Virus record (IMG/VR): IMGVR_UViG_2724679236_000008
DNA length: 64,000 nt
DNA from: a virus
Taxonomy: Duplodnaviria > Heunggongvirae > Uroviricota > Caudoviricetes
Reading direction: 5' to 3' (one strand)
In this document: positions 14,098-14,924 of the stretch, in pieces
How the letters are laid out: every line of letters begins with the position of its first letter
How positions within the stretch are numbered: the first letter of the stretch is position 1
Translations under genes and position numbers: made by a program
Notes under the pieces: model-generated
Seen by the model: the letters and a program-made list of their open reading frames with translations, nothing else
Database searches by the model: none
What the model was told of the DNA's origin: nothing

Positions 14098-14676
14098 TTA
14101 AGCAGCATACAACCACTTGTCGCCGTTCAATACATGCTCAATAGCCTCACCCTTTTTAAGGCTTATGTATTCCAGGATGGCGGTTATCGCTTGTTCTGCA
14201 CCATACGCAAGAACGACGTAGTAACCTTCCTCTCTAAGCCTGCGCATCCAGGCGATCTGCTCTTTCGTCGGGGCTTTACCATTTGGTTCTTTAAGCTCAA
14301 TTCGCATGCCGTGATAAATACCGCATGCTTTATCGAGACTCATGTCCGGATAACCTTTTTTCTGCCCTTCAGCCTTCATTTTCCCGGCGGTTGCTTTTGA
14401 ACGTTTCCCTCCGTTAGGCGTTGCATGCAACAGCTCATAGATGTCAGGGTGCTTGCGTTCGAAGTAATCAAAAATGAAAACCTGCTCGAAGTGCTCGCAA
14501 TTTCCGTCGCGCAGGTCTGGGGTCTTTGCCAGTGCTGCAAGTGCCTTCGCATGTGGAGAAACTTCTTTTACCGGCGCAAGCGATAAGAATGGATCCTTTT
14601 TGGTTTTTGGCCTGGACCGCCCCTTATTTCGACGCTCACTAAAAGCCTGAAACTCTTCCTCAGTAAAGCGCAACAT
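14098..14676 (-). CDS. VRR-NUC domain nuclease (PD-(D/E)XK), 192 aa
   Basis: GYPDMSL...ELKEPNGK...EQIAWMRRL core typical of VRR-NUC. Confidence 0.7.
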   Translation of the reverse strand: MLRFTEEEFQAFSERRNKGRSRPKTKKDPFLSLAPVKEVSPHAKALAALAKTPDLRDGNCEHFEQVFIFDYFERKHPDIYELLHATPNGGKRSKATAGKMKAEGQKKGYPDMSLDKACGIYHGMRIELKEPNGKAPTKEQIAWMRRLREEGYYVVLAYGAEQAITAILEYISLKKGEAIEHVLNGDKWLYAA

Positions 14677-14678
14677 AA

Positions 14679-14924
14679 TCAGTCAAATCCTGCCGGTCGC
14701 ATGCCATATTTACGCTGTTTTGCGGCCTGCTCTTCCCTGTGCCATTGCGCACATTCAGCGTCACAATAAATGCCTGATTCAATCGATTCATTGCAGTAAC
14801 GACACTTCCCTGTAAATACCTGGCTCACGACCTGTGTCTGCTTTCTGATGTTATCGATGGCCATGTCTTTGAGAGCTTCTAACTGATTCATGCTCAGCTC
14901 TGCATCATCAACACGTTCTGCCAA
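14679..14924 (-). CDS. C4 zinc-ribbon protein (TraR/DksA-like small phage protein), 81 aa
   Basis: CRYC-x9-C-x3-C cluster; stop 2 nt before the VRR-NUC start. Confidence 0.6.
   Translation of the reverse strand: MAERVDDAELSMNQLEALKDMAIDNIRKQTQVVSQVFTGKCRYCNESIESGIYCDAECAQWHREEQAAKQRKYGMRPAGFD

Follow-up and report, generated by a model that had tools for sequence, protein, structure and literature searches.

pmgL and pmgM in a P1-type phage: a VRR-NUC nuclease gene and a gene for a divergent TraR/Orf73-family protein next to a C1 operator

Although bacteriophage P1 is among the classical models of phage biology and serves as a standard transduction tool, its pmg genes still carry the label 'putative morphogenetic function'. 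For two of them, pmgL and pmgM, the closest described systems are the transcription factors TraR and lambda Orf73 and the nucleases with a VRR-NUC domain. The hallmark of the helix tip which DksA and TraR place into RNA polymerase's secondary channel is the motif DxxDxA (PMC9239242; PMC4010833). Stand-alone VRR-NUC proteins are dimers which introduce symmetric cuts into four-way junctions (Pennell et al., PMC4103454), and one of them, the dimeric resolvase psNUC of Psychrobacter, binds such junctions with subnanomolar affinity (PMC4103454). The same fold is used for 5'-flap cleavage in FAN1 and for toxic, structure-specific cleavage in the TseV effectors of the type VI secretion system (PMC9635880). 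Here we describe the pmgL-pmgM locus in a stretch of 64,000 nt of DNA from a tailed phage (Caudoviricetes; IMG/VR record IMGVR_UViG_2724679236_000008), referred to as the window in the following.

Judged by its sequence, the window comes from a P1-type phage and the two open reading frames (ORFs) are the already annotated genes pmgL (former orf83a) and pmgM (former orf83b). The surrounding region is 98.8% identical to P1 at the DNA level over 3 kb, with identical gene order, and the region around pmgL-pmgM shows 97.7-98.9% identity to 18 records of the P1, P7 and SJ46 type. PmgL and PmgM each differ by one amino acid from the P1 counterpart. We took over the gene names from the P1 annotation (AF234172 / NC_005856); the coordinates given here are window coordinates, which correspond to the coordinates of our locus L001 plus 9499. 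An earlier note, made from the letters of the window alone, had described a two-gene unit with a 2-nt gap, and inspection of the sequence verified both minus-strand ORFs and the gap (14677-14678), in which the TGA stop codon of pmgL is followed by TT and the ATG of pmgM. The genes 3' of pmgM are pmgN, pmgO, pmgP, ppp and pmgQ. On the other side, the tail or baseplate gene 26 starts at 15071 on the plus strand, divergent from pmgL, leaving an intergenic region of 146 bp. Our reading of the locus, to which we assign a probability of about 0.62, is that pmgL and pmgM form the head of a pmgL-pmgQ unit and encode a factor of the TraR lineage and a junction nuclease, respectively, with separate functions.

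PmgM is, according to its sequence and its structural model, a VRR-NUC nuclease of the PD-(D/E)XK type with an intact motif, as the earlier note had proposed. In a phmmer search against PDB sequences PmgM matched psNUC (4QBL) with an E-value of 3.5e-17. The AlphaFold2 model (pLDDT 82) shows a restriction-endonuclease-like alpha/beta fold, and Foldseek retrieved the same structure with this model (E 1.5e-9, TM-score 0.78), followed by stNUC, the resolvase RecU and, far more weakly, FAN1. We aligned 30 PmgM homologues, down to approximately 36% identity, and found E61, D111 (in PD), E127-x-K129 and Q140 to be at least 90% conserved; the PD-ExK residues are thus kept across the alignment. Further, PmgM matches PHROG 5702 ('Holliday junction resolvase') with an E-value of 5e-27, and many of its homologues carry a precomputed PF08774 assignment. 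In NCBIfam there is no family for PmgL, PmgM or PmgN. By analogy with psNUC, its closest solved relative, PmgM most likely cleaves junctions as a dimer. In a knock-down screen of P1 with dCas12a (CRISPR interference, CRISPRi) the plating efficiency was 0.38 for pmgM and 1.3 for pmgL; both were scored as non-essential, in agreement with a deletion survey cited in the same paper (PMC10695390).

PmgL had been taken for a zinc-ribbon protein. That it is a zinc protein with four cysteines, which are invariant (C41-x2-C44-x9-C54-x3-C58), stands; it is not a generic zinc ribbon, however, and by profile comparison it is a divergent homologue of TraR and lambda Orf73. PmgL matches PHROG 54 ('DksA-like zinc-finger protein') with an E-value of 1.8e-12, and the same PHROG is matched by TraR of the F plasmid (2e-20) and by Orf73 of lambda (8e-25). 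An exhaustive HMMER search revealed a PmgL family of proteins of approximately 70 aa, and many further members were found by a degenerate DNA-pattern scan of IMG/VR. The motif DxxDxA is present at the N-terminus of 64 of the 73 distinct family members outside the P1 lineage; the P1-lineage relatives have DxxDxS at the tip of this helix and PmgL itself has D6-x-x-E9-x-S11. When the family profile was run against 177,635 PDB sequences, TraR was the best match (E 0.003); the two are in register from residue 1 to 45, a stretch which spans the motif and the first CxxC. Comparison of PmgL to an alignment of TraR plus Orf73 with hhalign gave a probability of 97% (E 1.2e-10), PmgL 5-64 being equivalent to TraR 1-67. 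The AlphaFold2 model of PmgL (pLDDT 74) predicts a helix (4-30), the zinc knuckles and a second helix (56-72). Outside the P1 lineage, the gene that comes after a family member is often lambda orf61-like, comparable to the exo-xis region of lambda, which holds orf73. By analogy with TraR, an action of PmgL on RNA polymerase is plausible.

Some further observations concern the PmgL family. A phmmer search of PDB with PmgL alone yielded only chance matches to PHD fingers, which were discarded. The PmgL-type loci outside the P1 lineage (L182-L301) make up a broad, previously unnamed TraR-like subfamily, which carries DxxDxA at the N-terminus and in which the zinc site is shortened to TGxCxxC-x9-12-[FY]Cxx(x)C. 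Two distant homologues, P0140 and P0137, are located on contigs of less than 1 kb with no gene context.

The reading frame of pmgL needed attention. The gene begins with TTG in the window, and since orthologues with approximately 50% identity have ATG at the same position, we regard the long, 81-aa form as the real protein. Overlapping with pmgL, an alternative-frame ORF ending with ...DLTDYVALY is present at 14660-14791 on the minus strand, and many PmgL variants in the protein database shift, at varied points, into this ORF. Most likely these frame switches reflect rare mutations or errors of assembly and do not point to a second product. We considered whether the many frameshifted entries mark pmgL as a decaying pseudogene and rejected this, for 74 of 75 P1-like loci in IMG/VR have an intact pmgL (the remaining one has an indel) and the orthologues with approximately 50% identity keep the frame.

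The earlier note had also placed the two genes under a divergent promoter region containing a C1 operator. This was borne out: the operator Op82 in the region between pmgL and gene 26 is the same as O26/Op82 of P1 (Table 1). A search with the C1 operator consensus, a 17-bp asymmetric site close to ATTGCTCTAATAAATTT, detected 10 sites in the window, while 0.28 would be expected by chance. Op82, a C1 site by sequence match, overlaps the -10 region of the predicted promoter P2pmgL and the -35 region of P1pmgL. These two promoters were not picked up in a stringent promoter scan of the window. The scan detected a 9/12 promoter-like site at 14123-14095 (GCGACA-17-TAAAAT), and no terminator-like site was found between pmgM and pmgN.

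Published RNA-seq data for P1vir infection (PMC8201110 Table S1) show when the unit is expressed. At 10 min the log fold change was 6.99 for pmgL, 7.98 for pmgM, 5.37 for pmgN, 7.39 for pmgO, 6.99 for pmgP, 6.95 for ppp and 7.05 for pmgQ. These values resemble those of the early genes ban (6.88), ssb (7.53) and repL (7.55); the tail genes 26, 25 and 7 were at 3.35, 3.62 and 4.42, respectively. At 30 min all these genes had reached about 10-12. According to these data, the leftward pmgL-pmgQ unit is expressed early plus late and gene 26 is purely late; RNA of the unit is already present at 10 min, as is that of known early genes. The rise between 10 and 30 min would fit late transcription from LPpmgL. 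From pmgL to pmgQ the RNA level is flat, except that the short pmgN is lower, and this pattern fits one read-through transcript.

Several observations weigh against the reading of two separately acting proteins at the head of one unit. For PmgM, the search with the profile of PF08774 (VRR_NUC), which the note had recommended, gave a match, but its score of 21.3 bits (E 2.9e-4) is below the gathering score of 23.8, and the N-terminal extension of approximately 55 residues is uncharacterised. For PmgL, pairwise BLAST revealed no similarity to TraR, PF01258 (zf-dskA_traR) did not match even at E-values up to 10, and Foldseek with the PmgL model returned nothing at E <1; MYND, YacG and DksA chains appear among the results, none of them significant. 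The helix tip reads DxxExS in PmgL and DxxDxA in TraR, and the exchange D74E in E. coli DksA was reported to cause loss of function (PMC4010833). In the Rhodobacter DksA homologue RSP2654, a change at the alanine position (A82T) impairs function, while D80E still works (PMC4010833). The zinc site is CxxC-x9-CxxxC in PmgL, in contrast to CxxC-x17-CxxC in TraR, and in the hhalign alignment PmgL lacks a 7-residue loop with R48 and R49 of TraR, two residues in contact with the rim helices and with beta' Si3 (PMC9239242). At the level of the unit, a tight coupling of TraR-like and VRR-NUC genes recurs in three lineages, which counts against complete functional independence. Finally, since the RNA-seq data come without start-site mapping, an internal promoter could contribute to the transcription of the downstream genes. 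It is because homology at the profile level coexists with the departures in tip, zinc site and loop that we call PmgL a divergent TraR homologue.

These departures lead to the first alternative, in which PmgL is derived from TraR and no longer works as a TraR-like regulator. It could instead compete with DksA or Gre factors in the secondary channel or have acquired a new target; a topoisomerase or DNA would be examples, with PmgL acting on them as a treble-clef zinc finger of the YacG kind. The DxxExS tip, seen together with DksA D74E, and the missing R48/R49 loop would fit such a change of function. The second zinc knuckle of PmgL is of the FCS/treble-clef type with weak similarities to DUF2116, VATC and L24e, and YacG can be superposed with a root-mean-square deviation of 1.8 A over 37 residues, which is not significant; the YacG and treble-clef similarities are in fact all below significance. 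Channel competition would also fit with the better development of P1vir in a dksA mutant (PMC8198154, PMC8201110), but pmgL RNA is about equal in both hosts (PMC8201110 Table S1) and a link between the dksA phenotype and PmgL is speculative. Further, the acidic N-terminal helix is conserved in the PmgL family, which argues for retained insertion into the channel. On balance we consider a loss of TraR-like regulation unlikely.

The second alternative was the view of the earlier note, namely that the two proteins form a unit. PmgL would then be an accessory subunit which targets, regulates or inhibits PmgM. The 2-nt gap implies translational coupling, and in the P1 lineage the genes are adjacent in all 37 pattern-found loci and in the diverged Cronobacter phage JK004, L076 and L077 (50-75% protein identity). 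Such coupling is also seen in lineages unrelated to P1: upstream of a VRR-NUC gene there is a canonical-looking TraR-like gene, at a distance of 10 nt in phage Shy (L098 1631-2432) and of 3 nt in Achromobacter phage Axy18 (L099 1626-2393), and in the contig L166 (2823-3366) a PmgL-type gene overlaps the start of the nuclease gene by 8 nt. Outside these cases the two genes part company. A VRR-NUC gene adjoins none of the 82 PmgL-type loci outside the P1 lineage (at the locus L190 one is encoded on the other strand at a distance of 821 nt). Among 80 diverse VRR-NUC loci, a PmgL/TraR-like ORF occurs within 3 kb in L166 alone, where it is immediately upstream, and the other 79 are without one. Homologues of PmgM with 44-57% identity in other phage-plasmids are preceded by unrelated genes, with no gene for a zinc protein, and no nuclease gene lies beside the PmgL homologues of Achromobacter phage AchV4 and of Erwinia phage Eho49. 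In addition, psNUC, stNUC and saNUC need no partner for their activity, and the characterised relatives of PmgL target RNA polymerase. We therefore regard an accessory subunit as quite unlikely. An obligate module of a zinc protein and a VRR-NUC nuclease is rejected, because PmgL-type and VRR-NUC genes stand apart in the vast majority of phages, and the idea that VRR-NUC nucleases and small zinc partners are a recurring pair does not hold as a general rule, given 0/82 and 1/80 loci plus Shy and Axy18. The pairing may nevertheless be more than an accident and reflect a recurrent benefit of co-expression.

It is very unlikely, finally, that PmgM is not a junction resolvase and acts as a FAN1-like monomer on flaps or forks or as a nuclease directed against the host or competitors: the flap cleavage by FAN1, the toxicity of TseV, the 26-residue insertion between beta1 and beta2 and the extra N-terminal region of PmgM would be in keeping with such a role, but the insertion is common to psNUC, a dimeric resolvase, the Foldseek matches to FAN1 are far weaker than that to psNUC, PmgM has neither a secretion or toxin domain nor an immunity-like partner, and P1 is a generalized transducer which is not known to destroy the DNA of its host.

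Returning to the reading with separate functions, we propose that C1, bound at Op82 in the lysogen, would block both sigma-70 promoters which overlap this operator. Once the phage is induced or infects a cell, the unit would be transcribed early and then more strongly late from LPpmgL, and the transcript most likely runs through pmgM into pmgN-pmgQ. With the arrangement stop-TT-ATG, pmgL and pmgM would be translationally coupled and yet provide two separate functions. By analogy with its relatives, PmgM, a presumed stand-alone dimer, most likely cuts Holliday junctions and other branched DNA, and this would debranch replicating or recombining P1 DNA ahead of headful packaging. We suggest that PmgM is dispensable because host resolvases could stand in for it when it is lost. 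The acidic-tipped N-terminal helix of PmgL most likely enters RNA polymerase's secondary channel, like those of TraR and Orf73, and would in this way modulate host transcription.

Table 1. Features of the pmgL-pmgM locus in window coordinates.
Feature	Position	Strand	Description
pmgL	14679..14924	-	81 aa, TTG start; divergent TraR/Orf73-family protein
pmgM	14098..14676	-	192 aa; VRR-NUC PD-(D/E)XK nuclease (E61, D111, E127, K129, Q140)
pmgN	13876..14031	-	51 aa; ORF, P1 annotation, PHROG 2350
Shine-Dalgarno sequence of pmgL, GAGG	14933..14936	-	8 nt upstream of TTG; read from sequence
C1 operator Op82/O26, ATTGCACTAATAATTTT	14982..14998	+	15/17 consensus positions; identical to annotated P1 operator
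P1pmgL (TTAGTG-17-TATCAT) and P2pmgL (TTGAAT-16-GAAAAT), predicted sigma-70 promoters	14961..15021	-	P1 annotation; sequence verified here
LPpmgL, late Lpa-dependent promoter	15013..15031	-	P1 annotation; -22 element common with the divergent late promoter LP26
Degenerate C1-operator-like site Op83/Oppp, TATGTACTAATTAATTT	14075..14091	+	5 mismatches to consensus; P1 annotation
Predicted internal sigma-70 promoter (PpmgN in P1 annotation), 3' end of pmgM	14095..14130	-	Consensus match

The earlier note had further assumed a gap of 163 bp (13935-14097) between pmgM and the following genes. There is no such gap, as pmgN fills most of the stretch. This gene is annotated in P1, has orthologues in L076 and L077, and its product matches PHROG 2350 with an E-value of 1e-37. 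The true spacer between pmgM and pmgN is 66 bp (14032-14097). As for the separate promoter which the note had suggested for the genes beyond pmgM, one is predicted both in the P1 annotation (PpmgN, with the operator Op83) and by our scan. In comparison to P1, 9 of its 66 positions are changed (14%), versus approximately 1% in the flanking genes. At the degenerate operator-like site Op83, 2 positions differ from P1, and the site was not recovered when up to 3 mismatches were allowed. The CRISPRi screen scored pmgN as essential with a plating efficiency of 0.014, with which the deletion survey disagreed (PMC10695390). The annotated start of pmgO overlaps pmgN by 59 nt.

Across the 66-nt spacer pmgN is in frame with pmgM, and in the database variants P0001 and P0003 the stop codon of pmgM is changed to a sense codon, resulting in PmgM-PmgN read-through fusions of 266 aa. 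The possibility raised by these fusions, that pmgM and pmgN are one gene, was rejected; the stop codon is present in the window, in P1 and in the relatives.

The N-terminal region of PmgM (residues 1-55, 14512-14676) consists of a helix with the conserved sequence 'MLRFTEEEF' and, after it, a linker which is basic, disordered and modelled with low confidence. The PmgM homologues of phage-plasmids also have an N-terminal helix, with the pattern 'M-x-RF-[ST]-E-E-[WF]', and a basic linker.

The arrangement of the locus differs in more distant relatives of P1. In Cronobacter phage JK004 (L094) and in L076, L077, L083 and L087, a darB-like giant gene (approximately 2,200-2,280 aa) and a pair of small, conserved genes are located on the same strand, and these are followed by pmgL-pmgM or, in the more distant phage-plasmids, by pmgM alone. 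The divergent layout with a C1 operator is specific to P1 proper, because the block in these relatives is not divergent from the tail gene 26. Downstream in the window, pmgO and pmgP (12748-13934) are paralogues which show weak MptE-like matches in Pfam and match a PHROG family named 'alpha-2,3-sialyltransferase'; they adjoin ppp, encoding a lambda-type Ser/Thr phosphatase, and pmgQ, encoding a glycosyltransferase.

Much of what is described here was already public. The VRR-NUC assignment and the C1-controlled divergent promoter are part of the P1 annotation, the unit as such is ordinary and for the most part known, and only the reassignment of PmgL to the TraR/Orf73 family adds something modestly new. 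The identification of PmgM as a junction-resolving enzyme and of PmgL as a candidate regulator would nevertheless correct a placeholder label and give assays for both proteins. The two papers which reported the better development of P1vir in a dksA-deficient host left this effect unexplained and contain no mention that P1 encodes a TraR/DksA-related protein (PMC8198154, PMC8201110). If PmgL is indeed a regulator of the TraR/Orf73 type, it would be a testable lead for this growth gain, and it is tempting to speculate that PmgL and DksA compete for the secondary channel and that this competition helps to explain the advantage of P1vir in dksA mutants. Going one step further, PmgL could be an atypical TraR-type factor (DxxExS tip, truncated zinc domain) which competes with DksA, and the translational coupling to VRR-NUC genes that recurs in three phage lineages could reflect a link between the modulation of RNA polymerase and the processing of stalled or reversed forks while the phage replicates; we hold this combined idea to be rather unlikely.

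In summary, the locus can be compared to three known systems. It shares with pmgL-pmgM of P1 (AF234172 / NC_005856) an identical Op82 and the same flanking genes, gene 26 on one side and pmgN-pmgQ on the other; it differs from P1 in the changed pmgM-pmgN spacer, and the Op83 site is weaker here. PmgM has in common with psNUC (4QBL) the fold, approximately 30% identity over the domain, the catalytic E/D/ExK/Q residues and a long beta1-beta2 linker, while psNUC is devoid of the approximately 55 extra N-terminal residues. PmgL is similar in size to TraR and Orf73, and the layout of helix, zinc domain and helix in TraR (PMC9239242) is also that predicted for PmgL. The acidic-tipped N-terminal helix of PmgL is in register with D3, D6 and A8 of TraR, and these proteins have in common equivalents of E13, I20 and R24, the first CxxC, a site of four cysteines and a helix at the C-terminus.

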